From: an uncultured Chloroflexia bacterium
Lineage (GTDB): Bacteria; Chloroflexota; Dehalococcoidia; DSTF01; JALHUB01
Length of the DNA stretch: 64,000 nt
Direction: 5' to 3'
Assembly: GCA_963726245.1 (NCBI GenBank)
Contig: CAVSBT010000037.1
Coordinates: 139,532-203,531, forward strand
Shown: in pieces, positions 14,004 to 64,000 of the stretch
How positions within the stretch are numbered: the first letter of the stretch is position 1
How the letters are laid out: the number at the start of each line of letters is the position of its first letter
Notes under the pieces: model-generated
What the model saw: the letters and a program-made list of their open reading frames with translations, nothing else
Databases searched by the model: none
Told to the model about the DNA's origin: nothing
Position numbers and translations under genes: made by a program

Positions 14004-14705
14004 CTAGATGCGCTCGGCGCGGACGACGAGGCGGTGGCTGTATTGGTGGATGTCTCGGTTGAACGTGCCGGTGCAGGTTATGAGGGTGACGGTGTCTTTG
14101 CTGGTGGGACCGACGATCTCGTTGATGGGGGCGTCGTCGCTGGCATAGGCGACGTTACTCACCACCAGGTACTGGTAGGAGGTGCCGTCGGCGAGGTCCA
14201 CCTCGACCAGGTCGCCGGGGCCCAACTCCTTCAGGTGCCAGAAGACAGCGGGGCCGACGCTGGCGAAGTCCACGTGGCCGGAAAAGACGGCGTTGCTGCC
14301 CGCGCCCGGTCGGGCCGTGAAGTCGTACCAGCCCACATCAAAGGCCGACCTCGGCGACTGCATGGCGCCCTGGTCGTCCACTCCCAGCGTCACGACCGGC
14401 GCGTCGACCCCGATCTTGGGGATGACCAGTCGGGTCAAGGGAGCGCTGCTGGGCGGCGTCGCGGCGGGCGGCGTCTCGGCCAGTTGCCGCAGTCGCTGCT
14501 TGTCCAGGCTGAAGCCGGTCGAGGTAGTGGCGTCGCTGAGGGACGGGCCGGAAGTCGGCTCGGGGATGGAGCCGTCGGTGCCACTGCCCACGACTCCCGA
14601 GAAGGCCATCCCCAGGAGCACGAAGGCGGCCAGGATCAGGGCAACGCCGGCGCCCATGAGCCAGCGGTGCAGGTTCCGGTTACGATTGGCGTAGGAGCGA
14701 CCCAT
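14004..14705 (-). CDS. Class F sortase
   Basis: N-terminal TM; RLVIPKIGVDAPV, PG..SNAVFSGHVD (His), TLITC (Cys) and YSHRLVVRA (Arg). Confidence 0.92.
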   Translation of the reverse strand: MGRSYANRNRNLHRWLMGAGVALILAAFVLLGMAFSGVVGSGTDGSIPEPTSGPSLSDATTSTGFSLDKQRLRQLAETPPAATPPSSAPLTRLVIPKIGVDAPVVTLGVDDQGAMQSPRSAFDVGWYDFTARPGAGSNAVFSGHVDFASVGPAVFWHLKELGPGDLVEVDLADGTSYQYLVVSNVAYASDDAPINEIVGPTSKDTVTLITCTGTFNRDIHQYSHRLVVRAERI

Positions 14706-14796
14706 GCGCTTCTAGCCCTCGAAACCACTAACGGTACTTCATTATACGTTATTACGTCCGATTATGGGTTCGGGACTCGTTGGGCGGCAGTCGCCC

Positions 14797-14864
14797 CGCG
14801 ACGTAGGGACAGAGCTTCCCCGCCGAAGGCGGGTCCGCCTCTGGCAGAAGCTCCGTCCGCAAGG
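14797..14864. repeat. GTAG-type REP interrupted by a 30-bp mini-palindrome
   Basis: Matches the reverse complement of 9375-9412 (1 mismatch), with CCCGCCGAAGGCGGGTCCGCCTCTGGCAGA inserted at 14819-14848. Confidence 0.7.
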
Positions 14865-15026
14865 CAGTTGTAGGGGGCAGACGGAGCGTGCCCCAGAAGG
14901 CCAGCCTGAAGCCTGGCACCGGTGGCTCGAGCCGGCCTCAAGGCAGGCCTTCAGAGGAATGGATAGCGGCCGGGCCTCCGCGACACCCGATCACGCCAAA
15001 TAGGGAACTTCTTGCTCCCGCCCAGC

Positions 15027-15055
15027 GTTAACCATTTGGGGCCGCGCCGCGTTCT
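15027..15055 (+). promoter_or_regulatory. Putative ECF sigma promoter GTTAAC-N17-CGTTCT
   Basis: Same boxes and spacing as the motif upstream of the ECF gene (32262-32290). Confidence 0.55.
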
Positions 15056-15157
15056 TATTGTAGAGCGGCCCTACCGGGCTCCGGCCCGGTTTGTACGGCC
15101 GTTCATCGGTGTGTCCCGGCCCGCCATAGGCGGGAGCGCCGCGGGGCCGCCGCAGTA

Positions 15158-15187
15158 TTGACAAGGGACGCCTGCTGTACTAAAGAT
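15158..15187 (+). promoter_or_regulatory. Sigma70-like promoter
   Basis: TTGACA-N17-TAAAGAT, conserved in the duplicate at 17107-17136. Confidence 0.5.
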
Positions 15188-15284: not shown

Positions 15285-16906
15285 ATGCGCGTTCCAGGGC
15301 AGCAGAGAAAGTCTTACATGTGGAGGTGGACGGCAGCGCTCGCGGGGTTGGCCGTCCTTGGTTTTGCGCTGGTGATGGCGGTGGTGGTCACGCCGGCCAG
15401 CAGCGTCCAGGCTGCCACCTTTACCGTGAACAGCGTTGCTGACACCGGCGACGCCGACGCTCGCCGACGCCAAGTGCGACGTCAACCTAGCGTACATCGG
15501 GCAACCAGTGCACCCTGCGTGCAGCCATCGAGCAGGCCAACAACCGACTCCGGCGGTTGGCCAACACCATCACCTTCAGCTCGGCACCGGCACTCAACCA
15601 TCACTCCCGGTGGGCGCCTATGACGCCCTCGGTGACGACGGCCTCACCATCAATGGGGAGCGGGACCATCGTCATCAAAGGCGCTTCCTGCCATGCTGGA
15701 GGTCGACGCCGACAACGTCACCATCTCGCACCTGATCCTGAACGGCGACGCCGCCGGCGCAAACGGCATCGTGGTGCGCGCCACCAACGACAGCTACCCA
15801 CCTCACCGGCGTCGAGGTCAGGAAGTACACCGGGACGGGCATCGTCTTCAACGGCAACAACGACGACTTCGTCCTGGATACCGTCAATGTCCACGACAAC
15901 ACCGGCGACCGGCATAGACCTGGCCGCTGGTTCTGACGACGGCATCATCCGCAACAGCACCATCGAGGACAACGGCGGCGGCGGGATCTACCTGAACGAC
16001 GGCTCGGGCAACCAGATCCTCAACAACACCATCCAGGATAACGGCACTGGGCCGACACGACGACAACGGCATCGAGGCCACAGACCAGAGCGAGTTGACG
16101 CATCCTGGGCAACACCCATCAGCGACAACTACGACGACGCGATCCGGATCGAAGGCGCCGGCACCGGCCTGGTCACGATCAACAACAACAGCATCCACGT
16201 CGGCCAGGGTGGCATCGACCTCGAGGACGACTGCCACTGCGACGACGTCCATATCAGCGGCGATACCGCCATCCGAGTCCAACTGCTTCAGCGGCTCCCT
16301 GACCGCCGACGTCGAGTTCTACCTGGCAGAACGAAAGCGGCGACGACATCGAGGCCCAGTACAACTACTGGGCCGGCGACACGGACCCCAAAGACAAGAT
16401 ATGTGCCATCGGACCAGAACAACGTCTAATTGCGACGCGAGGCGGCGGTACCGCAGACGGCGACGTCGACTGGAGCCCGGTGGCAAGCTCGTGCGCCGGT
16501 GGCCACGCGTCACACCCACGCCTACCACCGCCACGGGTAGCATCACACCCAGCTTGACGCCCACGTGACGGGCACGCCGCCCACGTCGACGCCCACAGTG
16601 ACGGGCACGCCGCCTACATCCACGCCCACGCCCACGAGCGCCATGGAGTCGGTGACGCTGGCGGGCGGCACCTGCAACCCGGTGGCCAGCACCTACGCGG
16701 ACGGCACGCCCATCGCCACCATCGCGGCAGGCGTCTCACCGTCGGGCATCCTCATCTCCATCTGGTGGTACAACACCGGTTCGGGAACCTGGCTCGGCTA
16801 CTCGGCCCAGTTCCCCGACCAGAGCGACTTGAGCAGCGTGGACCGCCTGGAGGCGATATTCATCTGCGTCAGCTCCGCAGGCACCTGGAGCCGGCCTATA
16901 ATCTGA
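15285..16906 (+). CDS. Secreted CSLREA-like/right-handed beta-helix protein with PT linker and GCNP..RPxI C-terminal domain (multiple frameshifts)
   Basis: Signal peptide ending VQA-ATFTVN, CTLRAAIEQAN, and beta-helix repeats (IIRNSTIEDNGGGGIYL). The C-terminal domain is in ORF 16565..16906. Confidence 0.8.
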
Positions 16907-17237: not shown

Positions 17238-18860
17238 ATGCGCGTTCCAGGGCAGCAGAGAAAGTCTGGCACGTGGAGGTGGACGGCAGCGCTCGCGGGG
17301 GTGGCCGTCCTTGCTCTTGCGCTGGTCGCGGCGGTGGTGGTCACGCCGGCCGGCAGGGTCCAGGCCGCCACCTTTACGGTGAACCGGACTACCGACGAAT
17401 CTGACAACGACGTTACCGACGGCGTGTGTGACTGGGACCGGCGACGACTGGCAACCAGTGCACTCTCCGTGCAGCCATCGAGCAGGCCAACGAAGACTCC
17501 GGGGTCGGCAACACCATCAGCTTCAGTATCACCGGCGGCGGCACCCACACCATTACCCCGGCGGGGAGTGCCTATGACCCCATTGTTGACGACGGCCTCA
17601 CTATCAACGGCGCAGCAATATCGTCATCAAAGGCGCTTTCGCCACGCTGGAGATCGACGCCGACAACGTCACCATCTCCCACCTGATCCTGAACGGCGAC
17701 GCCGCGGCCGGAAACGGCATCGTGGTGGACACCCCCAACGACGCTACCCACCTCACCGGCGTCGAGGTCAAGAAGTACACCGGGACGGGCATCATCTTCA
17801 GCGGCAACAACGACGACTTCATCCTGGATGCCGTCAATGTCCATGACAACGGTACGGTCGCCGGGCTCGGCATAGTCCTGGCCGCTGGTTCTGACGACGG
17901 CATCATCCGCAACAGTACCATCGAGGACAACAGCGTCGAAGGGATCTACCTGACCGACGGCTCGGGCAACCAGATCCTCAACAACCAATCGAGGATAACG
18001 GCAGCCCTGACCGCGGCGACGGCATCGGGGCCGACAGCCAGAGCGAGTTGAGCATCCTGGGCAACACCCTGAACGATAACTTCGACGACGCGATCCGGAT
18101 CGAAGGCGCCGGGACCGGCCTGGTGACAATCAACAACAACAGCATCCGCGTCGGCCAAGGCGGCATTGACCTCGAGGCGGGCTGCAACTGCGACGACGTC
18201 CATATCAGCGGCACCACTGCTGCCGAGTCCAACTGCTTCAGCGGCTCCCTGACCTCCGACGTCGAGTTCTACCTGGCGAACGAAAGCGGTGCTGACATCG
18301 AGGCGCAGTACAACTACTGGGCCGGCGATACCGACCCCGACGAAAAGATATGTGCCGTGGATCAGAATAATGTCGCGGACTGTGACCACGGCGGAGGCGA
18401 TCCCCCAGACGGCGACGTCGACTGGAGCCCGGTAGCTTCGAGCTGTGCCGGGGTGGCTACGGTCACGCCCACGCCTACCATCACGGGTACCATCACGCCC
18501 ACCCTAACACCTACGGTGACGGGCACACCGCCCACGTCGACGCCCACCAACACGGCGACGCCAACGGGTCCCACGGCCACGCCGACAACGGGCCCCATGG
18601 AGTCGGTGACGCTGGCGGGCGGCCACTGCAACCCGGTGATCAGCACGTACGCCGATGGCACGCCCATCGCCACCATCGCCGCGGGCGTCTCACCGTCCGG
18701 CATCCTCATCTCCATCTGGTGGTTCAACCCCGGTACGGGTGACTGGCTCGGCTACTCGCCCCAGTTCCCCAGCGTGAGCGACCTTGCCAATGTGGACCGC
18801 CTGGAGGTGATCTTCATCTGCGTTAGCTCCCAGGGTAACTGGAGCCGGCCCATAATATAG
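17238..18860 (+). CDS. Paralogue of 15285 gene: CSLREA-like/beta-helix surface protein (frameshifts)
   Basis: Near-identical leader, signal peptide and beta-helix. ORFs 17238, 17722 and 18048 join, ending GHCNP...WSRPII. Confidence 0.82.
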
Positions 18861-18980: not shown

Positions 18981-20408
18981 ATGCGTACGCGAAAGCTCAG
19001 CCGCGCGGCGGCAGCAATTGTCTTGAGCACCCTCGGTGCGGCGCTGCTGGTCTGGCTGGCGGTGGTTCCAGCCACCCGAGTCCAGGCGGCTACTTTCACC
19101 GTCAACGTAACCACCGACGGCGGCGACCTGGCTGCCGACGGTGTCTGCGACTCGGACGCGGCGGGCGGCAACCAGTGCAGCCTGCGCGCCGCCATCCAGG
19201 AGGCCGACGCCTCGGCGGGCCAGGACGTCATCGCCATCGGCGTCGCCGGGCCCATCGTGCTCACCGGCTCGCTACCGCAGATTACGGATAACGGCCTTGT
19301 TATCACCGGGAGCGGCCAGCAGGTCAGCATGACCGCCCCTGGCATCGCCTTCTGAGGTCAACGCTGACGGCGTCCAGATCAACAACCTGGTCATCGACGG
19401 CTCGAACGTCGGCACCACGGGCATCAGGATCAGCGTCCACGACGGATGACCTGATCCTGGACGGCGTCACGTCCGTGGCTTCACCAGTGACGGCTTCTGA
19501 GAACACCGGTGGCGGCGGCCAGCGCAATACCATCCGCAACAGCACCTTCACCGCCAACGCGGGCGACGGCATCGGGTTCACCGGCGGCAAAGATGACGTC
19601 GTATCTCGACAGCATCATCACCAACAACGGCCAGGCGGCCGACGGCCTGGAGGTGTCAACGAGGACGGCCTGGTCATCCAGGGCAACACCTTCTCAGGCA
19701 ACTTCAACGCCCAGATCGCTGATCGGCAGCATGCAGGCCGGCCAGCACGTGTCTATCATCCAGAACAGCATCACATCGGGCTCCGACGGCATCGTCATCG
19801 GTGCGGCGGTGAACGCGACGGCCGCCATCGACATCGGCCTCTCCGTCGCCAACCGCAACGTCTTCCGCGGCGCCATTGCCGCCCCGGCCGAGCAGCACCT
19901 GAGGAACCTGAGCCCCGCCAACATCAACGCCATCTACAACGACTGGGACGCCTACAATCCGGCCGCCATCGAGGGCGAAATCTGCCACGATGGCGACGCG
20001 GGTTGCGGGCCCGGCGTGGTCAACTTTGATCCGTTCGTCGACACGCCCTCGCCCCTGCCCACCATCACGCCGACGCCCACGGTCACCGAGACGCCCGGTA
20101 CCCCCACGGTAACGCCCACGGGGACGCCTGCCGCTACCGGCACGCCGGGAGCCGTGGAGACGTTGCCCCTGATAGCAGGCTGCAACCCGCTGGCCTGGAC
20201 CGGGACCGACAACACGCCCATCGCCACCATCGCCGGCGCCGTCTCGCCGGCGGGCATTCTCGTGGCACTCTGGCAGTTCAACAACGGCACCTGGCTCGGC
20301 TACTCGCCTCAGTTCCCCGAAGTCAGCGACCTTCAGCAGATGAACCGTCTGGACGTTGCCTTCGTCTGTGTGAGTGGCGCGGGCACCTTCAGCCGTCCCG
20401 TGATCTAG
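18981..20408 (+). CDS. CSLREA-domain beta-helix surface protein with GCNP..RPxI C-terminal domain (frameshifts)
   Basis: ATFTVNVTTDGGD...NQCSLRAAIQEA, beta-helix, PT linker, then AGCNPLAW...FSRPVI. Confidence 0.82.
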
Positions 20409-21110: not shown

Positions 21111-21620
21111 ATGGCTCGACTCGCATTAAGCGTTATTCTTACTAGTGTGTTCCTCATGGCGGCACTCAGCATGCTTAGAAATGGCCATGTGAACCCCGTG
21201 GCCCCTGTCTATGCTTGAGGAGGCCCTCCGCCGCCGACGGCGACTTCGGCGGCCGCCACGGGTTCCGTGGCACCCACAAGTACCGTAGTACCCACACGTA
21301 TCGTGGCTCCCACGGCCATACCCACGCAAGCCCCGCAGCCGACATCAGCACCGTCTCCGGGCGCAACCGAGACGGTTCCGCTCATCGCGGGGTGTAGCCC
21401 TGTGGTCTGGACAGGCATACATGGTACGCCCATCGGCACCGTTGCTAGCGCCGTCTCACCGGCCGGGAGCCTCGTCGCGCTCTGGGCGTTTGACGCTGGT
21501 CTCTGGCTAGGGTACTCGCCTCAATTCCCGGAAGTCAGCGATCTGGCGCAGATGAATCGCCTGGACGTGGTCTTCGTCTGCGTCAGCACTACCGGCACCT
21601 TCAGCCGGCCCGTGATCTAG
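21111..21620 (+). CDS. Minimal secreted protein: signal peptide, PT linker and GCNP..RPxI domain (frameshift ~21220)
   Basis: AAGGAGGT RBS and ATG 21111 give MARLALSVILTSVFLMAAL. ORF 21267..21620 carries the domain. Confidence 0.7.
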
Positions 21621-25179: not shown

Positions 25180-25398
25180 GTGTCAACACCTAGGTTGACG
25201 CCTCGGGTAGCGCTGAAAGAGTGGCGGCGGCTGCGTGCCCTGTCACAAGAGGAACTGGCAAGGGCAGCGGGCATTCAACGCAGCACCATCGTGGACATCG
25301 AGAGCGGAAAGCGGTCTCCTCGGCCGAGCACGCTGAGAAGACTCGCGAAGGCGCTGAACATCAAGCCCGAGGGGCTCTTTGCGGATCCATTCGCGTAG
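25180..25398 (+). CDS. XRE-family HTH transcriptional regulator
   Basis: LKEWRRLRALSQEELARAAGIQRSTIVDIESGKRSP....LRRLAKAL; divergent from the HNH gene. Confidence 0.9.
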   Translation: MSTPRLTPRVALKEWRRLRALSQEELARAAGIQRSTIVDIESGKRSPRPSTLRRLAKALNIKPEGLFADPFA

Positions 25399-26214
25399 CA
25401 GAGGGGGGTGCCGGGCCACGTTTGCAGGTGCGAGGTCTGCGCTTCCGGCTGAATCCCGCTCCTGCCAACGGAAGGCGCCCCGGCGTTCTGCCGAGGCCAT
25501 CCATACTCGCCGGAAGGTAGGATCGGGCTTAGCCGCCTCTTCTAGCATGGGGCCGTACATGCGCTCAGCACGCACGAAGCGCCGGTCGCTGTACTCATGG
25601 CCGTCCCAGGAACCGCCGCAGGTGACAAGGGTGACGGCATCATGACCGTTGATGCCGAAAACCTGGTCCCAGTTGATCTCATCCACCGGAGACTCCTGGT
25701 TCCAGACGACGGCATAGTAGTAGACGGTCTGGTCCGCCAGCCGCACTTCCACCTCGTCACCGGGCTTCAGCTGGTCCAGGTCCCAGAACACAGCCGGGCC
25801 GTAGTGGATATAGTCCACGTGGCCGGATAAGATGGCATTCCCTCCAAACCCAACTCGGTGCTCCTCCCCGGGATGGTACTCAGACATATCGTACACGGCG
25901 ACAACTTCCGGGCCGCTGGGCATGGGCATGACCCCGTCGGTGTCCACGGTGTGCGGCTCCAGGGCAGCGTTAACGTCTATCTTGGGGATCAACAGCCTTT
26001 CAGGAGCAGCCCCGCTTGGCGGAACGGGGCTTTCCGTGGGCCAGGGAACAGCTGTCGCCGTCGGTTCAGTTACCAGCTGCCGCTGCGGCTTCTCTCCTCC
26101 TCGAAAGACACCCTGCGTTGAGACCACAACCAGGGCCGCACCCAGCAGCGCCGAAGCCAAAGGGGCCGCCAACAGCGGCAGTCTCCTCGACAGCGTTAGC
26201 TTCCATATCCGCAT
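25243..26214 (-). CDS. Class F sortase (the true stop may be earlier, ~25500)
   Basis: TM, RLLIPKIDVNA, NAILSGHVD, TLVTCGG and YSDRRFVRA. The C-terminal tail overlaps the XRE gene on the other strand. Confidence 0.9.
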   Translation of the reverse strand: MRIWKLTLSRRLPLLAAPLASALLGAALVVVSTQGVFRGGEKPQRQLVTEPTATAVPWPTESPVPPSGAAPERLLIPKIDVNAALEPHTVDTDGVMPMPSGPEVVAVYDMSEYHPGEEHRVGFGGNAILSGHVDYIHYGPAVFWDLDQLKPGDEVEVRLADQTVYYYAVVWNQESPVDEINWDQVFGINGHDAVTLVTCGGSWDGHEYSDRRFVRAERMYGPMLEEAAKPDPTFRRVWMASAERRGAFRWQERDSAGSADLAPANVARHPPLLREWIRKEPLGLDVQRLRESSQRARPRRPLSALDVHDGAALNARCPCQFLL

Positions 26215-26969: not shown

Positions 26970-27031
26970 AGTATTGAATCCCTCCGTTGATTCCATTCCC
27001 CGGAGCTACCCCTTAGCGGAAGCCCCTGACT

Positions 27032-36058: not shown

Positions 36059-36088
36059 GTCAACCCTCTCTTTCACACGGAAGCTCCG

Positions 36089-41793: not shown

Positions 41794-41882
41794 CTTGTCT
41801 CACTGGCGGGGCAAACGCCGCTCATGGCGCCTCTACGCCTACGCGGCGATGAGTATTCCTCAAGACATCCCCCGTGTTCTCG

Positions 41883-46209: not shown

Positions 46210-46452
46210 TTGAACCTCCCACTGAGCTTGGTTTGGGACCAAGAATGTTCATCTTCCTCTTGAAAAATGGCCTCCGTTTCCACCTCCTTACGGCGGGGCT
46301 GGTTCAGGTATGCTCGGTTTGGGGCGTCCCTGCCGGTGTCGGGGAGGGGGCCGTCCGGCCACCCAGACGAGCCGTCGGGCCGGCCCCCTCCGTTACCGCT
46401 TCTGCCAGGGCTCCGGCTCCCGGGTCCCTGGCTCCTTTGCTCCTAACTCTTC

Positions 46453-49155: not shown

Positions 49156-49457
49156 AAACGCATCCTCCATCAACTTCGTTACAAAAGAGTCGGGCTGCAC
49201 ATGGCTATTGCTATGGGCACCTCCTTCGCCGCATTTCCTTGCCTCCCGCCCGTCCTCTCAAGGCCCGGGGCGCGCAGGCCCTTGCAAAGCACAGCCTCCC
49301 TCGCCGTAGGCCAGCTCTCACACGTTCATCACCGCGTCCCCCTCCTCGGTCCCGCGGACGTGCATGAACTCAAAAACGACGAGGCGTCCTTGCCCCCAAA
49401 AGCTATATAGGCTCGATACTCTTTCGGCGGGGAATCTACCAATCCACCAGCGACCTT

Positions 49458-50502: not shown

Positions 50503-50509
50503 AGAGACG

Positions 50510-52541: not shown

Positions 52542-52734
52542 AGGGGCTTGACAAATCTCGCCCAAGGGTGTAACTAGTGGAGCTGGTGGCTGTTCTTTCC
52601 CCGCCTTAAGATTCTGGAGCGTCATACAATCGAATAGAGCCAGGCAGGGATTGCGTTGCGGTCGCGGACAGGAAACGCGGCCAATCCTTGTTTGTGTTTT
52701 CCGTAAGCCGGACACACCGGGGTGTAGTGGTGTA

Positions 52735-54847
52735 ATGCAGCCTCAACGACGACGTCTGGGTCTCGCCCCGTGGCAGTGGGTTGCGCTGCTTGCCAGTCTG
52801 CTCCGTCATTCTCATCCTCACGTTGAACCCCAGGGGCGCCGGCCAGGCGCACGCATACACCATCGATGGGGATCAGCGAACTCATCATCAACGCGAGCGC
52901 TGTGGACGTCAAGCTCGTCAGTGCTGAAGCCGCCTACAACAACACACTTCGGCCTCTACGCAGCACCCGGCGAGCCCCTGGCGTCACCTGTCGACCCAGA
53001 TACTCTTCGACTGCAAGGATCACGCATCATCCGCTCGACCTGGGGACTTTCAACGCCGGCGAATTGGAGTTCATGCTTACCACGCCGCCGACGTCGGCCC
53101 GCCCGACGGAAACCGGACCTACTACACCGGCCCCGCCAGCCGGAACCCCGATGGCTTCCAGCACGCCCACATCACCCGTATCAATAGACACCAACACGGC
53201 TCAGATTGGGTGGGAGGACCTGTGGGGTGGTGGGGACCAGGACTTCAACGACTGCGTCGTCAACGTCATCATCACTGAGTTGCCAACCGCGACTCCCACC
53301 CGCACGCCGACACCGACCAGCACGCCGCTAATACCGACGAACACGCCGACGCCGACGAGCACGCCCACCAGCACACCGACGGCCACCAACACGCCGGTGA
53401 CCGCCGACGAACACGCCGACGCCTACGAGCACGCCTACCAACACACCGACGGCCACCAACACGCCGGTGACGCCGACGAACACGCCGACGCCTACGAACA
53501 CGCCGCACCAGCACGCCGACGGCCACCAACACGCCGGTGACGCCGACGAACACGCCGACAGCCACGCAGCACGCCGACGAACACGCCGACGGCCACCAAC
53601 ACGCCGGTGACGCCGACGAACACGCCGACGCCTACGAACACGCCGACCAGCACGCCGACAGCCACCAACACGCCGGTGACGCCGACGAACACGCCGACGG
53701 CCTACGGACACGCCCACCAGCACGCCGACAGCCACCAACACGCCGGTGACGCCGACCAACACGCCGACGCCGACGAACACGGCCACCAGCACGCCGACGG
53801 CCACCAACACGCCGGTGACGCCGACGAACACGCCGACCAGCACGCCGACGGCCACGCCGGTAGCCGACGAACACGCCTACGAGCACACCGACGGCCACGC
53901 TGGTACCGACGAACACGCCGACCAGCACGCCGACGGCCACCAACACGCCGGTGACGCCGACGAACACGCCGACCAGCACACCGACGGCCACCAGCACGCC
54001 GGTGACGCCGACGAACACGCCGACGGCGACAGCCACCGCCGGCACGCCCACGGGGACGCCCGACCCGCAGATGGTCAAGGACCCGGCCCAGGCGAATCTC
54101 TGGCTCTGCGACGCGTCGCCGCCGAATTGCACGGGCCCGGGCCAGGGCAGCATCACGGTCAGCGAGATTGCCCGCAACGTCGCCAACGATCCAGAAGACG
54201 TTGACCCGATGACCGGCGCTCCTGAGCCTATCGATGGTCTGGGCGCCTACGAGTTCAACCTCGAGTACGACCTGAGTGTGCTGCAGATACCGGTGATCAC
54301 TGACGCTGGCTTCCTGGGCAGCACGGGGCGGACTGTCAGTTGCGCACCGAGCATCATCGGGGAGAACATCATCCACTGGGCCTGCGTGAGCACCGGGAGC
54401 ATGGCCGGCCCGTGGGGCATGGGTCCCTTCACGCTGGCCACCATCGCTGTCAAGCCGCAACCAAACCTGTACATCGATATGTGCCCGGGCTTCGAGAACG
54501 GTGTGGTGACCTGGCTGAAGGACTCGGCTTGCCAGTGGTCGGACACCCTGGGCGACCCCATGGCGGGGACACTGCCTGGTGGTGACCTGAAGTACTGCAC
54601 GAGCACCAAGCTCACCATTCGCTACCTGGAGGGTGACCTGAACCACGACTGCCAGGTCGACCTGCTCGACGAGCAGGCAGAGGCCTGGCGGTACGGGAGC
54701 CACTTGGGCAGCCTGTGGTACACGACGTGCAACAACCTGCAGCCTTACCCGCCTGACAGCGACATCGACGTGAAGGACCTGCAGTTCATCTTCGGTCGTG
54801 CCGGCAGCACCTGCCAGAACCCCTACCCGCCTCAGCCGCCTCAGTAG
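52735..54847 (+). CDS. Secreted protein: DUF4114-like domain, long PT linker, cohesin and dockerin (many frameshifts)
   Basis: IGWEDLWGGGDQDFND.VV, ~750 bp of TPTNTPT repeats, and a C-terminal cassette nearly identical to that of the 43639 gene. Confidence 0.82.
53290..54060 (+). repeat. Degenerate Thr/Pro coding repeat array
   Basis: Repeated ACGCCGACGAACACGCCGAC / GGCCACCAACACGCCGGTG units. Confidence 0.85.
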
Positions 54848-55224
54848 ACCTGACCAAGCTCAAGAATCTCCCAAACGTATACGTGACCAAGGTCCCACCT
54901 CCAGGGGCCTTCTCGCTGCTAGCGGCTGCTCGGGCGACCGACGGCAGCACCCCGCTTGTGCGTGTTCGCGTCCCTATCTACCAGCCAGCATCTCTCCGGA
55001 CGCCGCAGACGTTCTATGTAGTGGATGGCTTATAATGTGGGCATCAGGCGAATGGCACGGACGCCATCGCGCCCCGCCCGCGCCCCCTCTGCAGCCGCTG
55101 TCAGCCAGACAGCTCTTTAGAAGCGAGGGCAGTCAACCGAAGTTCTACGTAGAGGTAGTAAAGTGGGGCTTCAACTCGGGGGAAGCCTTAGTATCAGCCG
55201 CTTCGTGATTTGACAAGGGGGTTA

Positions 55225-57929
55225 ATGGGCTTCACCTCTCCATCGCAGAGATCCGCCCCGCTGTTCCCTTGGGGCAGCCGGTGGGCTCTCCTGGGCAGCA
55301 GTCTACTGCTGGTCGGCCTTTTGTTGGCCTTCGTCGTTCCCCAGGGTGGGTCCCGAGCGCCTGCTGGCTTAGCTCAGGCGCCGAGCTGCGCCCCTGCCAG
55401 CGGCACGGTGGTCTGCATACAGCCCGTCAACCAGGTGGCCGAGACGGGCACGGACTTCAACGTCGACATCGTCGTCGACAACGTCTCCAACCTCGGAGGC
55501 TTCCAGGCTACGATCCCCTTCGACCCTTCCCTCATGTCCTTCGCTCATGCCACCTATGGCAGCTTCATGGGAAGCACCGGCCGCGACGTCAACTGCTTTC
55601 CCGAAAAGCCTGCGCCCACCCCGACCCCGGCCTCCGCCTCGCCCACCCCAACTCCCACCCCAACGGTCGGCATGGTTGAATTGCAACTTACCTGTGTCAC
55701 GACCCCACCGAGGGGACCGCCGGGACCGGGTGGCGCCAACGGCTCCGGCGTTCTGGTCACCGTCACCTTCTCGCCCCTTAGCCCCGGCTTCAGTCCTCTG
55801 GAGTTGGTCGATACTATCATCACCAACCCCCAAGGCAACCCTATGCCTGTCACCACACAGAACGGCAGCGTCACCGTGGAACAGGGGCCCACGCCCACCC
55901 CCTGCGACGGTGTCTGTCCTACCGCCACTGTCACGCCGACACCCACCCAAACGCCCACGCCAGGACTGGGACCTACAGTGGTGCGGCCGGAGCCGCTCAC
56001 CCAGACCCACCTGCTCGGAGAAACCTTTACCACCGACATCGTGGTCGACAGCGTCCAGAACCTGTCGGCGTTCGAATTCGTCCTCGCCATCGACCCAAGT
56101 GTTGTGACTCGTACACAGAGAAGACGGGTCCGTCGACATAGCACGAAGGCGACTTCCTGGGAAGGACCGGCCGCAGCGTCTTCTGCCCCTCCGCTACGGC
56201 GGGCTCCAGCACCGTCCGCTTCGCTTGTGTCACTACCGGCCCGCAGGACAGCCCCAGCGGCTCGGGCGTCCTCGCCCGCCGGAACTTGAATGCCTCGAAA
56301 GTGGGGAGCAGCGCCCTGCAAATGGTGAAAGCCGAACTCGCCGACCCGCTGGGCGGGGCCATCCCCGGTTTCGGTCACAGATGGTAGCGTTACGGTGAGC
56401 AAGCGACACCTACGCCGTGCCCCGGTGGGATTTGCCCCACCGCCACCATTACCCCCACCCCAACTATCACCCCTACTGCGACACCTACACCCGTTCCAAA
56501 CCCCTGCGTTGTGGGCTCCGGCATCGATATTTGTGTAAAGCCTGCCGGCCAGGTGGTGTCCCAGGGCAACTCCTTCTCGGTAGACATCGTCGTGGACGAT
56601 GTGAATAACCTGGGTGGCTTCGAGTTCACGCTCGGGTTCCACCCAGATGTCGTCGCCTTCACTAGCGTCCAGGAAGGGCCCTTCCTGGGGAGCGCAGGGC
56701 GAAGCGTTAGCTGCCTCCCTGCCACCATCACCGTAGACAGCGTCAAGTTCGGATGCACCACCCTGGGTTCGGCCCCGCCCAACGGAGCCAACGGCACGGG
56801 CACGCTGGCCACCCTGACCTTCCTGGCCACGGCTGCTGGTACGAGCCCCTTGGACCTGGAGAACGTGATCCTGGCGAATCCCTCTAGCGGCCAGATAGGG
56901 CCCGTCACCGTCCATGATGGCTCGGTGGAGATCTTCTCGGGGAACACACCCACGCCGTCTCCCACGGCAACCATCACTCCCACTCCGACCATTGGCCCGA
57001 CGCCCACCACCTTGACCCACGTCGACCCGCCTTCGCAGACAGTCCCCTTGGACTTGGACCCAAACTCAACCTTTGTTGAGCGGATCTCCGTCGAAGGCGT
57101 AACCAACCTAGGCGGATACCAGTGGGTACTGGCGTACAATCCTGACCTGATGGACTTCGTGGAGGTGGTGAACAGCGGATTCTTGGGCAGCACGGGCGGC
57201 GAAGTACTCTGCCCATCCCCGATTCTGGATACAGGCTACATCCAGTTCGCTTGTGTCACGTCTGGGTTACGGGAGAACGGCGCGAGCGGGTCGGACGTGC
57301 TATCCTTCATCGTTTTCCACAGCCTCGCCGAGGGCACCAGCCCCTTGGACCTAACCTCCGTTACCCTCTTACATCCCCTGGGTGGTGAGCCCATCCCGAC
57401 GCGCATCGAGGACGGAACTGTCACCATCTCCAGCCAGCCCACGCCGACGCCGACGGACACGCCGCGCCGACGGACACGCCGACGCCGACGGACACGCCAC
57501 GCCGACGGACACGCCGACGCCGACGGACACGCCAGCCACGGACACGCTGACGCCGACGGACACGCCGACGCCGACGGACACGCCGACGCCGACGGACACG
57601 CCGACGCCGACACGCCGACGCCGACGGACACGCCGGCCGCGGCCTCACCGAGCCCGACTGCTAGCGATACTCCGACATCGACGCCGGTCGGCGGCGGCCT
57701 GTCGCCCGGCGGAACCGCCGGCCCGAACCAGACAGCCGTCAAGGGGAGCCCATCCAGGACGCCGCCGCTATCGGGGGTGAGGCTAGCCGGCTGGCTCTCG
57801 ACAGCGCTGGGCGCGTTGTTGTTAGCGCCCGGCCTCCGCCGCGTCGCGCCCACCCGCTGGAGAACGAAGGGTAGGCGTCGACTCGGGACGCCTCGGCGCT
57901 CTCGTGACACCAGGGCAGGTGGCCCATGA
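55225..57929 (+). CDS. Scaffoldin-like protein: four tandem cohesins, PT linkers and C-terminal hydrophobic/basic anchor (frameshifts)
   Basis: Cohesins at ~55410, 55975, 56525 and 57015 (NLGGFQ/NLSAFE/NLGGFE/NLGGYQ...F.G.TGR..C...F.C..G.G.L). Ends GWLSTALGALLLAPGLRR. Confidence 0.85.
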
Positions 57930-57990: not shown

Positions 57991-59654
57991 ATGAGGTGCG
58001 GCCGCCGGCTTCCTGTGATTCGGGGACCCTGGGGCCTACCCCAGGCGGTCGGTGGTGCCATACTCGTCCTCACCGTTGGCCTGGCATTGGGCCGAGAGGC
58101 CCTCACACAGCCGGCGCCCTCAATAATCAAGAGCCCCCAGCAATCAAGCCTCTTCCTGGGAGGGCCCTCCCTCACCATCAACGAGGAAGTGGCAAACGTG
58201 CCACCTGGCCCCGGTTTGGGCGCCTTCAGCTTCCGCTTCTTCTACAACAGTAGCCTTATCAACGTCACGGTCCAGGAAGGGCCCTTCCCCTTCCTCGGAA
58301 GCACTGGTCGCCAGACGACCTGCCTTACTCAGCAAGGCGAAGGCTTCGTTCAGTTTAGCTGCGTGTCCTCCAGCACCACGCCGGGCCTGCCAGGCCCTAC
58401 GGGCTCTGGCACCCTGGCCACCATCACTGTGCGACCCAAAGACGGCCTGGTCTTTAGGCCGACCGTGAACAACGGCGCCGTCGCCACCCTCGACGACGTC
58501 GAGTCCGACGCCCGTCTGGCTAACATCCTCGGTTCTCCCATAGACGTGGGCAACGTGGGGACGCCACCATCGTTGTCCGCGCCCTTGAGGGAGACCTTAA
58601 CCTGGACTGTAAGGTCAACGTCATTGACGAGCAGATGATCTCGTTCCGTTACAGAGCTACCCGCGGCTCCATCTGGTACAGCCTGTTCTTCGACCTACAG
58701 CCTCCGTTGGGCGATGGTGACATCGATGTCAAAGACCTTCAGTTTGTGTACGGTCGCGATGGCAGTACCTGCGAGGAGCCCATACCGCCGCAGCCTCCAG
58801 GACCGGCTACGCCCACGCCGACCGCTTCACCCACCGCCACCGGCACGCCGTCCGCGGCTACGCCCACGCCGACCGCTTCACCCACCGCCACCGGCACGCC
58901 GTCCGCGGCTACGCCCACGCCGACCGCTTCACCCACCGCCACCGGCACGCCGTCCGCGGCTACGCCCACGCCGACCGCTTCACCCACCGCCACCGGCACG
59001 CCGTCCGCGGCTACGCCCACGCCGACCGCTTCACCCACCGCCACCGGCACGCCGTCCGCGGCTACGCCCACGCCAACCGCTTCACCCACCGCCACCGGCA
59101 CGCCGTCCGCGGCTACGCCCACGCCGACCGCTTCACCCACCGCCACCGGCACGCCGTCCGCGGCTACGCCCACGCCAACCGCTTCACCCACCGCCACCGG
59201 CACGCCGTCCGCGGCTACGCCCACGCCGACCGCTTCACCGACCGTGACCGGCACACCGCCGACGGCGACGCCGACGCTGACAGCTTCGCCCACCCCCACC
59301 GGCACGCCGCCCACGGCTACGCCCACCGCTTCACCCACCGTCACCGGCACGCCGCCCACGGCGAGCGCAACCGCCATCGCCACGGCCACGGCGACGCCTA
59401 TCGGCGGGGTGCTGCCCGGGGAACACACGCCCACCGTCGGACCCCCCACGGCAACGCCTGTAGGCACACCACCTGAGGAGGCAGTGCTTCCCATCGCCAC
59501 GCTGCCAGCCCGTGTTCTGCCCAGAGCCGGCGAAGGGCCCACCAGCAGTGGCAACACGGCCGATGTCGCGATGGCAGCCGGCATACTGATTCTTGTGGGG
59601 CTGTCCTTCCTGCTAGCGGGCATCAGGCGCGGGCCTCTTGAGCGCGACCGTTAG
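57991..59654 (+). CDS. Cohesin, dockerin, 17-aa repeat stalk and LPxAG sortase signal (frameshift ~58565)
   Basis: [12 protein letters not shown] cohesin; [30 protein letters not shown] dockerin; LPRAG + TM + RR. Confidence 0.85.
58806..59240 (+). repeat. 51-bp tandem repeat, 8 full copies plus a partial one ([17 protein letters not shown])
   Basis: Units start at 58806, 58857 ... 59163, 59214 and are nearly identical. Confidence 0.95.
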
Positions 59655-59769: not shown

Positions 59770-60393
59770 CTACGACGCGTGGAAGGTTGCAACGATACGC
59801 GAGAACAGGGGAACATACGGATCGAGGGTGCCGACCCCATAGCTGTTAAGGCCGATCTCTCAACCACATTCCCCCTTCACAACGTAGGCTACAATCTGCT
59901 CTACAGTGACGCCAGCGAGAGAGACGAAGTACCTGATCTGCTTCCCTTCTACCCCATCTACCTGGATAGGCTGGGCTTGCCTCGAATCGATGACCCCCCC
60001 GTAGGGTATCACGTTGGCCGCGTCCTTCATTAGGAGGCTGTCGGCCGTCAGGCCCTCCCCTTCCTCGCACATCACGCTAACCTGGGCGAGGACCCGACCC
60101 TCCGGGGTGCTCCAGACAAAGTTGTCCGACAACCCCATGGAGCCGACCTGATATTCCCATCCCTCGGGGTAGTCAATGGAGTAACCCTTGTCAGGAGACT
60201 CATACGTGACCAGGGAGACATCGGGGTTGACGGTGGGGAGCACCTCCGGCGTCGGTGTCTCCCCGTTGGCCACCGATGTCTCGCCTGGAGCCGGTGCCAG
60301 GGTCTCCTTTTCGGCGCCTCCACAGGCAACCACCAGCAAAGCGATAGCGCAGACAACTCCCAGAACGATCCACCGTGGAAACCGAGCCTTCAT
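59770..60393 (-). CDS. PsbP/DcrB-like lipoprotein (frameshift ~59862)
   Basis: Lipobox VVAC, TYESPDKGYSIDYPEGW; continues ...LFSRIVATFHAS* in another frame. Confidence 0.72.
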
Positions 60394-60603
60394 CTGGATA
60401 CCGCGTACCTCCCCAGAGTGCCAGAGCGCTGTCTAACACAGGCTCGGACACCCACAGCGTAGCGCCGCACACAAAGTCCCACACTAAGGTACACGCTGGG
60501 AACCGCTATTGCAACCAGCGGCCGCTAGTCTGCCAAGATGATAGGGGCCGGCAGGCTACGCCGCCGACCCCACTCCCAGACGTCTCCTCGATGACAAGAC
60601 ACC

Positions 60604-63149
60604 CTACGGCGGCCCCGTGCAGTCCAGCCCCACCTGCGCCAGCACCCCCAGCACGTCGCTCATGTCGACGGCACCGTTGGGTGGCCCTGCATCCCAAGGC
60701 GGGTTAGGCGGCGGGCTAGACGAACGGTCATAGCAGAGGCCTTCTTTAACCGGCACGGTATCCCCGTTGATGTGGCAGGAGGCCTTAATGCTGTCGTAGG
60801 CGACACCGTTGCCGTTGGGCGGGCCACCCTCATTGGCGCCCACGTACAACATCACCGCCAGCACGTCCGCCATGGTGACCACCCTGTCCTCGGGGCCGTT
60901 GGCCTTGGGGTCTGGGTTCGCTGGCACCGGGACATCGTAGACGTCATAGTAGTTGAGAGGGTTGAAGCCGATAGACGCCTCCTTGCCGTCGCCACAGCCG
61001 TCACCGTCAGTGTCATACACGCAGGGGTCAGTGCCCAGCTGGAACTCCGTCAAGCTGCTCAAGCCGTCGCCGTCCGGATCGGCGTTCCCATCGGCAACCA
61101 GGGGGTTGAGGCAAGAGTGAGCCGCCTCATAGCCATCGGGCATTCCGTCGCCGTCAGTGTCGGCGTTACACGGACCCGTGCCTAAGCCGAACTCAACGAT
61201 ATTGGTTAGGCCATCGCCATCAGGATCGAGGCCGGCGTCAGGCACCAAAGGGTTCAGGCAGGCATGCGCCAGTTCGTAGCCGTCCGGCATGCCGTCCCCA
61301 TCCGTGTCCGGGTTGCAGGGGTCGGTGCCGGCTAGGTACTCCTGGATATTTGTAGCGCCATCGTGGTCGGGGTCTTTGTCGGCATCGGGCACCAAGGGAT
61401 TCAAGCACGAGTGCTGCATCTTGTAGCCGTCGGGCATGCCGTCACCGTCAGTGTCATACACGCAGGGGTCGGTGCCCAGCTGGAACTCCGTCAAGCTGCT
61501 CAAGCCGTCGCCGTCCGGATCGGCGTTCCCATCGGCAACCAGGGGGTTGAGGCAAGAGTGAGCCGCCTCATAGCCATCGGGCATTCCGTCGCCGTCAGTG
61601 TCGGCGTTACACGGATCGATGCCTAAGCCGAACTCAACGATATTGATTAGGCCATCGCCATCAGGATCGAGGCCGGCGTCAGGCACCAAAGGGTTCAGGC
61701 AGGCATGCGCCAGTTCGTAGCCGTCCGGCATGCCGTCCCCATCCGTGTCCGGGTTGCAGGGGTCGGTGCCGGCTAGGTACTCCTGGATATTTGTAGCGCC
61801 ATCGTGGTCGGGGTCTTTGTCGGCATCGGGCACCAAGGGATTCAAGCACGAGTGCTGCATCTTGTAGCCGTCGGGCATGCCGTCACCGTCGTGGTCGGCG
61901 CAGGACAGCCCCGTCTGTGCCAGCACCGCCAGCACGTCCTGCATGTTGACGGTGCCGTCGGGCGCGCTGGCGCCCCACGGCGGCTTGAGTAACGGGCTGG
62001 GCGTGCGATTGTAGCAGAGCCCCTCCTTGTCTGGCGCCGTATGTCCATTGACGTGGCAGGAGCCCTTAATGCTGTCGTAGGCGACACCGTTGGCGTTGGC
62101 CGGCCCGCCCTCATTAGCGCCCACGTAGAACAGCACGGCGAGCACATCGCTGATGTTAATCGTCTTGTCCCGAGGCCCGTTGGGCGTTGGGTCCCGGTTG
62201 GCCGGCACCGGCACGTCGTAGAAGTCCCAGGGGTTGAGCGGGTCTAAGCCAATCCGGCGATTCTTCGCTGTTTGCACACCCGTCACCGTCGGAGTCTGCC
62301 GAGGGTCCCGGCGTCGGCGTCGAGGTAGGCCAGATTAATGGCGTTTCCGTCGGCGTCGCCGTGGCCGTCGGCGTACGCGTATCCGTTGCAGTCGGCGTAA
62401 TGGTTGGTGTGTTCGTAATGGTTGGTGTGTTCGTAGTGGTTGGTGTGCTCGTAATGGTGGGTGTAGTGGTTGCAGTCCGAGTAGCCGTCGCCGTTGGGGT
62501 AGGGGTGGCGGTAGGCGTGGGCACCGGCACGTTCTGGCACGTTATGCCGGCGTCCACCAGGTCGGTGGTGATCGCGATGCCCCTCGAACCGAGGGTGGTG
62601 GTGAACTGGGGAGGATTATCGGCTGAGGTCACGAGGTGCAGTGGGCTGATCCCGTTGCCCACGCACCGGAAAGTGGCGTTGACGACCGCCCCCGAGAAGT
62701 CGGTGGTGCCCGATGGCCGCGCGGAGCCGCCAAACAGGGTGTCGATGAGAGTGTTGGCGTCGGTGTCATACCCGGTCACCGGAGAGTCCAGCGCCATGCC
62801 CCCCTGCTCCAGGTAGTCCCAGGCGTCATTTGTCGTGTCCCCGTCATAGTCATACGTGGGCACGAAGACCAGGATGCCGTCGTTGTACTGGAGCCGGAGG
62901 TTGTAGCCGGCATATTTGTCCGCCGTGACGCTGTCCCACGTGATGCAGGCACTCACAACTAAGGTACTGGCCCCGTTGACGGTGCGGCTGTCTTGAATGC
63001 TGGCGCAGTTGTCGCCCCCTACGGCGTCCACGCTCATGAGGTTGTGCGCTAGGGCCTCCGTCCCGGGGGCGCAGGAGGCTGAAGGCGGCCACGGCCGCCA
63101 CAATAACAAGAAGTCCACCAATGAGGATGACCCGCCTTGAAACGCTCAT
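60604..63149 (-). CDS. Secreted protein: family-2 cohesin-like, PT linker, dockerin-like module, six TSP3-like repeats, dockerin-like module (frameshifts)
   Basis: ORFs 62850, 62156 and 60604 join. DxDGDGMPDGYE..H.CLNPLV repeats are flanked by two WDFYDVPVPAN modules. Confidence 0.85.
60997..61890. repeat. 441-bp direct tandem duplication (2 x three 49-aa units)
   Basis: 60997-61437 is almost identical to 61438-61878. Confidence 0.92.
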
Positions 63150-63292
63150 GCCTTCCCCTTGTCTCGCCGCCGGTCCTTCGCGGCAGCTTCAGTTTAGCAC
63201 ATCGTGCAACCACCAAGTCAACGCCCAAGGCCGCTCTCTCGATGGATTGGCAGAGATTCCGGGCGATAGAGCGCGCTCCATCCTTGAGAACC

Positions 63293-63320
63293 AGGGAAGG
63301 GCGGCGAGCCGCCCTTCCTT
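63293..63320 (-). terminator. Hairpin after the 63338 gene
   Basis: AGGGAAGGGCGGC-GA-GCCGCCCTTCCTT. Confidence 0.5.
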
Positions 63321-63337
63321 GGTTCCGCTGGGCCTGA

Positions 63338-64000
63338 CTACGGCGGCCCGGCGCAGCTCAAGCCGCTCTGCGCCAGGACCGCCAGCACGTCGCTCAAGTC
63401 TATGGCGCCGTTCGGCGGGCCCGCGTCCCACGGCGGGTTTTGGTTGGGGCTGGGGATTGATTGTAGCACAGGCCTTCCTTGTCTAGGACCGTATCCCCGT
63501 TCCAGTCACAGGAGCCTTTGATGATGTCGTAGGCCACGCCGTTGCCGTTCGCAGCCTGGCCCGCGTTTGCGCCGGCGTAGAACAGCACGGCCAGCACGTC
63601 GGCGATGTCGATAGCCCGGTTCCGGGGGCCGTTGGGCGCCGGGGCCCGGTTGGCCGGCACGGGCACGTCGTAGAAGTCCCAGTGGAACAGCGGGTTGTAG
63701 GCGCCGGTAGCTCCCGGCTTCGGCGGCAGCGCCCCCGCGGGCTCCTCGCTGTCCGCGCAGCCGTCCTTATCGGTGTCCCTGACACAGGGGTCAGTGCCCA
63801 TCGCGAACTCCTGGGCATCCGTGAGCATGTCGCCGTCCCAGTCAGACGGCGGAGCCCCGAGCGGCAAGCAGGTCTGCTGCTGCTCCCACTGGTCGGGCAG
63901 GCCGTCCATGTCGTTGTCCGTCCACTGAGGCTGCACGTAGCACTTGAGCGCGTCCAGGTCGTCCGTTTCAGCAGTCCCAGGCTGGCGGCGGGGTAGGCCA
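63338..64000 (-). CDS. C-terminal part of another TSP3-like and long dockerin-like protein (5' end beyond window; frameshifts)
   Basis: DNDMDGLPDQWE, DTDKDGCADSEE, WDFYDVPVPAN, AIDIADVLAVL, ...DLSDVLAVLAQSGLSC. Confidence 0.82.

Follow-up and report, generated by a model that had tools for sequence, protein, structure and literature searches.

A 64,000-nucleotide stretch of contig CAVSBT010000037.1 (assembly GCA_963726245.1), here called the window, comes from an uncultured bacterium of the Dehalococcoidia and contains a locus of about 50 kb in which cohesin-like and dockerin-like modules recur. The locus is interpreted, with moderate confidence, as the core of a surface-display system that is built like a cellulosome, is not cellulolytic and belongs to a monoderm Dehalococcoidia bacterium; its probable role is to display binding proteins and a few enzymes at the cell surface. 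The homology of the modules, their architectures and their distribution were demonstrated by sequence comparison. The original prediction, made from the letters alone, had listed the modules and had read them as a self-assembling, calcium-dependent envelope or matrix and not as a catabolic complex. Its observations are confirmed almost number for number, and its interpretation as a whole is partly supported.

The G+C content of the window is 63-70% and open frames are therefore abundant, so all 499 stop-to-stop open reading frames (ORFs) of at least 60 aa between 13.5 and 64 kb were scanned against Pfam. The recurring modules were visible in an all-against-all BLASTP of these frames, and they were counted by iterative hidden Markov model (HMM) searches of the same 499 ORFs, seeded with residue ranges of window ORFs. 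The searches found 17 cohesin-type domains, 10 of them ordinary and seven divergent, together with three short dockerin-like modules (dockS), seven long ones (dockL) and eight copies of an 86-residue C-terminal domain (cterm). These match the numbers given before (about 10 and about seven cohesins, three, seven and eight), and our map likewise gives 25 secreted or anchored genes where about 25 secreted or lipoprotein genes had been claimed. Pfam families seen between 13.5 and 64 kb were Sortase, Beta_helix/NosD, Cohesin, the extracytoplasmic function (ECF) sigma regions, DUF5667, DUF11, DUF4114, TSP3_bac, rve and HEPN/SWIM/HNH/HTH. No Glyco_hydro family was found in the 499 ORFs at E ≤0.01, as the original prediction had stated, and the beta-helix, DUF11 and TSP3 repeats bear out its description of the cargo in the window as structural or adhesive.

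Cohesins, dockerin-like tails and anchors

The ordinary cohesins lie at 37180-37638, 42318-42770 and 43900-44367 on the reverse strand and at 50609-51031, 54140-54592, 55396-55887, 55966-56381, 56514-56942, 57000-57437 and 58111-58563 on the forward strand. Four window ORFs pass the gathering threshold of Pfam PF00963 (24.1 bits) with 31.0, 40.3, 32.2 and 43.0 bits and a fifth lies below it at 21.1; a Pfam Cohesin search of the whole genome gave four matches, all within the window. A profile of nine ordinary copies matched the scaffoldin cohesin 3l8q in the PDB at 5.9e-13 and 15 more cohesins at E ≤0.0021. At E ≤1 the same profile matched 21 sequences, 20 of which are cohesins, and the top matches were ScaB cohesins.

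The divergent copies, called cohX, are all on the reverse strand, at 35489-35965, 36092-36526, 38434-38943, 39187-39702, 41213-41655, 45613-46092 and 62528-63043. None of the seven has a direct Pfam match. Aligned with the ordinary cohesins by hhalign they gave 92.9% (E 3.7e-7) over 123 columns, all seven PDB sequences matched by their profile at E ≤1 were cohesins (best 0.006), and an HMM iterated from cohX alone recruited ordinary copies. On these profile comparisons cohX is a true divergent cohesin.

The short dockerin-like modules lie at 43642-43887 (-), 54605-54844 (+) and 58563-58808 (+). The reference for them was a set of 19 canonical dockerins from related genomes and this genome. Against this set dockS gave 88.9% by hhalign (E 2.4e-6) over 60 columns that include both calcium-loop repeats, while cterm, used as the negative control, gave 0.2%. 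The D-x-N-x-D...D loops can be seen in dockS, with a duplicated F-hand repeat, and these conserved Asp/Asn loops suggest calcium dependence. The module always stands directly behind a distinct cohesin-like module, without a linker, much like the X-dockerin unit that anchors primary scaffoldins. It would be the conserved 'scaffoldin' dockerin of the order.

The long modules, dockL, lie on the reverse strand at 40176-40496, 40626-41069, 41886-42308, 46465-46845, 60610-61023, 61891-62301 and 63409-63786, and correspond to the NCBIfam model NF041520, 'flexitail' (cut-off 40 bits). Five window copies pass this cut-off, with 81, 63.3, 62.5, 52.9 and 44.1 bits; the truncated copy at 40176-40496 reaches 38.6 bits and the copy at 46465-46845 is absent from the matches. 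Run on the whole of 60607-62334 the model gave 100.1 bits in two stretches, and three or four copies on the genome's other contigs also pass. The catalogue entry describes only a putative surface-protein tail. An AlphaFold2 model of dockL from 39 sequences had three helices and a mean predicted local distance difference test score (pLDDT) of 74.8. When this model was compared with 48,161 representative PDB chains, 14 chains were found at Z ≥2 and all 14 were dockerins, the best being the NagH dockerin 2ozn_B (Z 4.9, root-mean-square deviation 1.8 over 52 residues). Foldseek gave no row at E ≤1e-3 and its six best, weak rows were X-dockerin chains. PDB sequence-profile searches with dockL, dockS and cterm gave nothing meaningful. 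The structural model supports, and does not prove, a reading of flexitail in which a TSP3-like loop precedes a dockerin core whose two repeats are set apart by an insertion of about 60 residues; flexitail would be a lineage-specific enlarged dockerin placed on cargo and on adaptors. In all, the comparisons support the modules as relatives of cohesins and dockerins, as first proposed. In the literature covered, to which subscription journals do not belong, no paper was found on flexitail or on a Dehalococcoidia cohesin-dockerin system, and the Chloroflexi papers that mention both cohesin and dockerin are, by title or abstract, on biomass metagenomics.

The third recurring tail, cterm, is found at 16637-16903, 18591-18857, 20148-20405 and 21360-21617 on the forward strand and at 27035-27298, 29831-30097, 35099-35356 and 36746-37003 on the reverse strand. 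It matches no family in Pfam or NCBIfam. Its AlphaFold2 model is good (pLDDT 89.2, predicted template modelling score 0.80); Foldseek against the PDB gave no row at E ≤1e-3, a wide structure search gave 246 chains at Z ≥2 of mixed folds with a maximum Z of 4.0, and the ESM Atlas held unnamed clusters only, so that no fold was assigned. A sequence-profile match to BurrH was rejected, since its score adds up over repeats and no individual stretch reaches significance. The domain occurs in at least 302 proteins. Among the 120 of these that were listed, 42 are beta-helix/CSLREA proteins, three carry Pfam Cohesin, 74 have no precomputed family and one is a thermitase (subtilase) with two cterm copies. 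On cohesin proteins cterm follows a Pro/Thr linker. Because it is placed like the SLH domains of anchoring scaffoldins and is found on the same types of cargo as flexitail, cterm may be an attachment tag and a third portable tail.

Two window proteins have the form of scaffoldins, one with four cohesins (55210-57929) and one with two cohX (38062-39819). In six window proteins a cohesin-type module and a dockerin-type module stand together, where several such proteins had been noted before. Several kinds of anchor are present. A transmembrane (TM) tail ends the protein at 50396-51148, lipoboxes are found at 36089-36718 and 59860-60393, and one tail is of LPRAG type. No canonical LPXTG motif lies near any C-terminus in the locus, and the LPRAG + TM + RRG tail at 59.5 kb is the sole C-terminus with the layout of a sortase signal. 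The claim of two class F sortases stands in part. Two sortases are present and class F is their best NCBIfam class (NF033748, 120.5 bits for sortase 1 and 88.4 for sortase 2, other classes at most 42 bits), and both stay under its cut-off of 166. The ECF/anti-sigma pair was recovered, with Sigma70 regions 2 and 4 in one gene and DUF5667 in the gene directly downstream. The sigma factor scores 85.5 bits with the ECF superfamily model TIGR02937 (cut-off 42.9) and 140.5 bits, under its cut-off, with the BldN-family model; the pair plausibly controls the gene set. Omp85 was not found in this 82.8% complete genome, whereas seven of 14 control genomes gave matches. A monoderm envelope is established for Chloroflexota, and the missing Omp85 match fits it, in keeping with the probably monoderm lineage proposed before.

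Distribution, cargo and proposed assembly

The modules were sought in 41 related genomes of one order and five families, including this one (G000). Ordinary cohesins occur in 33 of the 41, in all families but one (f2), mostly with 9-26 matches per genome and with one to three in five genomes, and ORFs, of up to 4,574 aa, often contain four or more. The short module dockS occurs in 30 of the 41, typically in two to nine copies and at the end of multi-cohesin ORFs; the canonical Dockerin_1 is likewise found in 30, in up to 71 copies. Cohesin, dockS and canonical dockerin thus share one phyletic pattern, absent from f2 and present in the other families. On this sequence survey the locus is one case of a system found in most genomes of the order and not a singular invention.

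The other modules are less widespread. Flexitail was found in 12 of the 41 genomes and cohX in 14, and the strong matches (E <1e-40 and E <1e-20, respectively) are confined to G000, G007, G019 and G023. The same four and G001 and G004 have cterm. No canonical dockerin was found in G007, G019 and G023, and G000 has one. As far as the coordinates can be read, about 16 of the 28 cohX copies in G007, G019 and G023 have a flexitail no more than about 400 nt away, and most of them share an ORF with it. This joint appearance and fusion in kin genomes make cohX the best candidate for the flexitail socket. A complex prediction of cohX (residues 36-198) with flexitail, run without controls, stayed under the mark of 0.32, with scores of 0.18 and 0.08, and speaks neither for nor against binding. 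Public records with flexitail are mostly titled Dehalococcoidia bacterium metagenome-assembled genomes (MAGs), with some Chloroflexia. Two flexitail contigs (L011 and L035) are in MAGs titled Gammaproteobacteria and Promethearchaeota, which mis-binning or transfer could explain.

Flexitail was found in 968 cluster representatives at E ≤1e-3 among 1.84 billion proteins. It is at the C-terminal end in most of 150 listed representatives (101-1,683 aa), of which 69, of at least 380 aa and taken in listed order, were scanned for their cargo. Six are peptidases (M10 twice, M36, S8 twice and C1), 11 are of beta-propeller type, four are beta-helix proteins, three have DUF11 (one also among the propellers), three DUF7450, two CarboxypepD_reg, one Laminin_G_3 and one a cohesin, 11 have TSP3 only and 28 have no family. 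Elsewhere in this genome, beyond the window, flexitail is the last module of a protein with an RCC1 propeller, of a beta-helix protein and of one that reads flexitail-cohX-flexitail, and the one canonical dockerin ends an Agd3-type polysaccharide deacetylase with CBM87 on another contig. A degenerate flexitail remnant in another frame lies just past the stop of this canonical dockerin (L060:3400-4300, contig C30) and looks like a trace of tail exchange. No dockerin-fused glycoside hydrolase was found in the 499 window ORFs, in 29 ORFs around the genome's other flexitail and dockerin sites or in the 69 flexitail proteins, a count to which the canonical-dockerin cargo of the related genomes does not belong.

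The peptidases show that the phrase 'not a catabolic complex' was too strong, as does the deacetylase. They could indicate that the scaffold gathers peptidases and polysaccharide deacetylase into an exoenzyme complex for feeding on proteins or glycans, a cellulosome analogue resembling a 'proteosome', in which the binding modules serve to target substrate. The thermitase with its two cterm copies and the carbohydrate esterase of Agd3 type with its terminal dockerin are of this kind. However, there is no hydrolase domain within the 50-kb locus by Pfam, no enzyme family matched 63 of the 69 flexitail proteins at E ≤1e-5 and the genome's other flexitail cargo is the RCC1-propeller and beta-helix proteins. 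A catabolic complex is thus considered unlikely.

In the display system that we favour, the base would be formed by cohesins that a TM tail (50396-51148), lipid (36089-36718) and possibly sortase (57991-59654, with the two sortases) attach to the cell. The four-cohesin scaffoldin, the two-cohX protein and the six proteins with both module types would extend this base, and cargo would plug in by tails of dockerin fold, flexitail or canonical dockerin. The cargo would be mostly binding or adhesive (beta-helix, beta-propeller, DUF11 and TSP3), and hydrolases such as the peptidases and the Agd3-type deacetylase would be found elsewhere in the genome and the family. A more specific proposal is that cohX and flexitail are a new cognate pair that arose together in a subset of the Dehalococcoidia, largely replaced canonical dockerins and is usually fused, so giving head-to-tail chains or meshes on the anchored cohesins. 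In this proposal cterm is a third, non-dockerin tag with its own receptor, and the three codes together serve an extracellular assembly unrelated to polysaccharide breakdown. We regard this as tentative and rather doubtful.

The envelope originally proposed, in which dual cohesin and dockerin proteins polymerise into a calcium-dependent extracellular mesh, has in its favour the six window proteins with both module types, the tandem fusions of cohX and flexitail usual in G007, G019 and G023, and intact database proteins such as P0123 (cohX-flexitail-TSP3-flexitail). In ordinary cellulosomes, however, the adaptor scaffoldins have both modules too and form no meshes. The copy numbers fit a display system better than an abundant coat protein, and the presence of anchored single-cohesin proteins speaks for a hierarchy built on a base. 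Proteases are among the flexitail cargo elsewhere, and the genome has a dockerin-tagged deacetylase, neither of which suits an envelope or matrix. We therefore judge a mesh to be distinctly improbable.

Several observations weigh against the display system. The Pfam model Dockerin_1 (PF00404, 22.9 bits) is not reached by dockS (12.2 bits, E 0.22) or dockL (9.6 bits, E 1.5), and it had no match in the 499 window ORFs at E ≤0.01 or in the window by a genome-wide search at E ≤0.1. With canonical dockerins dockL aligns weakly by hhalign (50.7%, 25 columns, first repeat only) and a deeper alignment brought no gain (37.9%). The Z-scores of the dockL model, at most 4.9, are low, as expected for a core of 60 residues, and fall short of being convincing alone. 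Pairing is a prediction for every pair of cohesin and dockerin here. The compared genomes are kin and so the co-occurrence counts overstate independence. Since cterm is found in G001 and G004 without flexitail or cohX being found there, its partner would not be cohX. Frame changes are needed to read at least 13 of the 25 genes, and if these breaks are real then much of the locus is dead. A homopolymer of five or more was seen at only one of five inspected breaks.

The scores below the Dockerin_1 threshold would suit the view that the modules share folds without pairing and are parts of adhesins, namely independent immunoglobulin-like spacers and stalk elements that bind calcium. Cohesin and dockerin proteins outside cellulosomes are described as predominantly non-catalytic (PMC13487519, citing Peer et al. 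2009), and this is also consistent with such a view. The single phyletic pattern shared by cohesin, dockS and canonical dockerin argues for pairing, and dockerin-type modules placed as tails together with cohesins multiplied within an ORF fit a plug and socket. Given these points, folds shared without pairing seem highly improbable.

Frame breaks and gene map

The broken genes could mean that the locus is largely a decaying array of pseudogenes. Besides the number of broken genes and the scarcity of long homopolymers at the breaks, this would be consistent with a TAG at 56385-56387 that stands in frame in the scaffoldin, after its second and before its third cohesin, and with the insertion sequence (IS) transposase (51220-52488) and the HEPN/HNH/SWIM island inside the locus. 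However, the essential gene dnaE (DNA polymerase III alpha, 1568-5318, reverse strand) upstream of the locus is split in the same way, into two overlapping frames near 3990. The first (3213-5318, reverse) holds PHP and DNA_pol3_alpha 1-155 and the second (1568-4099, reverse) holds DNA_pol3_alpha 153-260, finger, HHH and OB. Intact database homologues align across the breaks and the flanking pieces keep 56-87% identity to them in the genes compared. In the scaffoldin, both the linker and the homology to P0195 run on through the TAG by blastx. Given that dnaE is split likewise, the roughly 20 breaks are probably assembly errors, and real decay of the locus is thought very unlikely. Homopolymers were rejected as their cause on the count given above.

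The map of the locus begins with sortase 1 (14004..14705, reverse, 233 aa; Pfam Sortase E 1.6e-25 in frame 14007-14711). Three secreted beta-helix proteins with cterm follow on the forward strand, all frame-broken. The first (15285..16903) has Beta_helix/NosD in at least two frames (cterm 4.2e-44) and an N-terminus that resembles CSLREA/beta-helix proteins of 476-481 aa, with the pieces in different frames. The second (17238..18857) has Beta_helix in two frames (cterm 9.5e-44) and matches P0009 by blastx in frames 3, 2 and 3. The third (18981..20405; cterm 1.6e-45) matches the same 479-aa protein in frames 3, 1, 2 and 3 with up to 74% identity. A cterm-only remnant at 21219..21617 (+; cterm 1.2e-45) covers the 477-aa P0005 at 376-477 only. 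Between these genes and sortase 2 lies an island at 23016-25395 of lower G+C (0.63), with a HEPN fragment, a SWIM zinc finger, an HNH endonuclease and HTH_3, possibly a mobile or defence insertion. Sortase 2 (25243..26214, reverse, 323 aa; Pfam Sortase 5.7e-15 in frame 25246-26238) is 41% identical to sortase 1.

Two pairs of genes follow on the reverse strand. A secreted protein of about 620 aa without a known family (27035..28926; cterm 1.3e-43) is frame-broken and matches the 618-aa P0115 by blastx in frames -2, -1 and -2. The other, of about 636 aa (29831..31712), has one frame change near 31020; the 636-aa P0103 aligns with it at 1-231 in frame -3 (72%) and at 229-636 in frame -1 (85%) by blastx. 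Each is followed by a small secreted protein with an approximately 85-aa domain, a Pro/Thr stretch and a C-terminal TM tail. These are the gene at 26370..27005, whose tail is followed by YRR, and its paralogue at 29163..29726, to which it is 80% identical. The domain of about 85 aa also lies inside the 1,039-aa flexitail protein P0248, and the small proteins could be the membrane receptor for the neighbouring cterm protein.

The ECF-type sigma factor (32345..32992, +; Sigma70_r2 1.1e-15, r4 1.4e-7) abuts the gene for the anti-sigma-like membrane protein with DUF5667 (33003..34436, +; 5.3e-11). A candidate lipoprotein without a Pfam match (34497..35012, +) has a signal peptide ending in AAAC followed by GGGG.

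The cohesin genes then begin on the reverse strand. The gene at 35096..36076 is intact and encodes a signal peptide, cohX, a Pro/Thr linker and cterm, in the same architecture as its intact homologue P0028. A lipoprotein with one divergent cohesin-type domain (36089..36718; lipobox LGAC; HMM 6.2e-44) follows, and then a signal peptide, cohesin, linker and cterm protein at 36746..37737 (Pfam Cohesin 3.3e-7; cterm 9.4e-44 in an overlapping frame) with one frame change near 37435 and an intact homologue of the same architecture, P0015. An intact protein of 585 aa at 38062..39819 has an N-terminal TM segment or signal, the cohX copies 39187-39702 and 38434-38943 (HMM 6.5e-50 and 2.4e-49), Pro/Thr linkers and a further, unassigned 120 aa at the C-terminus. 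The gene at 40108..41799 reads as signal peptide, cohX in three frames, linker, dockL 40626-41069 (flexitail 63.3 bits), linker and dockL 40176-40496 by the HMMs, the end of the second dockL being shifted to 40108-40275. The next (41883..43356) has a signal peptide, an unassigned N-domain, a cohesin and dockL (HMM 4.3e-45; Pfam Cohesin 3.9e-4, below the cut-off; flexitail 81 bits) and one frame change near 42830. An intact protein of 867 aa (43639..46242) has a signal peptide, cohX, DUF11 (2.1e-9), a cohesin and dockS. The last of this run (46453..49200) is an intact secreted protein of 915 aa, with a large body with TSP3-like calcium loops and dockL at the end (HMM 3.7e-52); it is 72-76% identical to P0180 and has no Pfam family and a weak NCBIfam match to MtsC thrombospondin-type.

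On the forward strand a candidate lipoprotein without a family (49633..50502; FAAAC) precedes the membrane-anchored single-cohesin protein at 50396..51148, which has a signal peptide, a cohesin (Pfam Cohesin 4.4e-10) and a C-terminal TM tail with RRARRSRRA. The rve-family transposase with a Mu-type C-terminal domain (51220-52488, reverse, by Pfam) comes next. The gene at 52651..54847 (+) joins DUF4114 (3.9e-8), a very long, frame-broken Pro/Thr linker, a cohesin and dockS. The cohesin-dockS ends at 43648-44451 (-) and 54056-54844 (+) are inverted near-duplicates with 88% identity over 268 aa, and as they flank the transposase they suggest a recent rearrangement. The scaffoldin (55210..57929, +; Pfam Cohesin 1.4e-7 and 6.6e-11) has its four cohesins, from 55396 to 57437, followed by a Pro/Thr stalk and a hydrophobic basic tail, and it has one frame change in addition to the TAG. 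The LPRAG protein (57991..59654, +) consists of a signal peptide, a cohesin, dockS, a Pro/Thr stalk of 200 aa and the LPRAG + TM + RRG tail, with one frame change at about 58558; P0183 matches 57964-58775 by blastx in frame 1 and then frame 3.

The remaining genes are on the reverse strand. They are a lipoprotein (59860..60393; VVAC) with a weak PsbP-like match, a gene at 60604..63121 with cohX, a linker, dockL 61891-62301, TSP3 repeats (TSP3_bac 1.3e-26) and dockL 60610-61023, with one frame change near 62300 and the architecture of the intact P0123, and a gene at 63400..64000 with TSP3 repeats and the dockL copy of 44.1 bits, which runs past the window end and is frame-broken there. Outside the locus, a 721-aa frame at 9431-11596 (-) has the N and C domains of a GHMP kinase joined to an aspartokinase (AA_kinase + ACT), thereby fusing two aspartate-pathway steps, which is unusual. 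An 829-aa protein at 6386-8875 (+) has a weak spermidine-synthase-like domain and nothing else matched.

Relation to known cohesin-dockerin systems

Cohesin-dockerin scaffolds are familiar from textbooks as the machines of cellulolytic Firmicutes and are much used in protein engineering. Examples in the Clostridia are C. thermocellum with CipA, its X-dockerin and SLH-anchored scaffoldins, A. cellulolyticus with ScaB and R. flavefaciens with its sca cluster. Like these cellulosomes, the locus has a multi-cohesin scaffoldin, adaptors with both modules, anchored cohesin proteins, a sortase in the cluster and an alternative sigma/anti-sigma pair nearby, and its scaffoldin-end dockerin stands directly behind a cohesin-like module as in the X-dockerin unit. 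Unlike them, it belongs to a different phylum and is without dockerin-fused glycoside hydrolase, scaffoldin carbohydrate-binding module and SLH, and it adds flexitail, cterm and a divergent cohesin subfamily. Regulation of RsgI type is described in PMC12484212.

The earlier survey of non-cellulosomal modules reportedly found them mostly scattered and single. As no dockerin-fused glycoside hydrolase was present in anything examined, the system is grouped with these non-cellulosomal cohesin-dockerin proteins. Like the modules of Peer et al. 2009, as related in PMC13487519 and PMC10066038, those of the locus occur outside cellulolytic organisms and mostly in non-catalytic parent proteins. In contrast to them they form a dense, hierarchical multi-gene system that is found order-wide, with 17 cohesin-type domains in one locus. 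The amylosome of Ruminococcus bromii (PMC4611034) is likewise a cohesin-dockerin assembly for a use other than cellulose, with GH13 amylases as cargo, whereas no glycoside hydrolase cargo was found here. The domain of NF041520 is the same as dockL, and this analysis adds a proposed assignment to the dockerin fold and the co-occurrence and fusion with cohX.

The picture that emerges is of a scaffold in several layers that has a dockerin variant and a cohesin subfamily of its own as well as a further tail domain, is found order-wide in uncultured Chloroflexota and is without glycoside hydrolases. Two points stand out, namely cohX as the candidate socket of flexitail and the cterm tail, which has no known family. 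If the interpretation is true, the cohesin-dockerin system would have a wider biological role and more orthogonal plug-socket pairs may be available for designer assemblies. Flexitail would gain a testable function and a candidate socket in cohX, and the locus would give a pointer to the surface make-up of these abundant soil and sediment bacteria.

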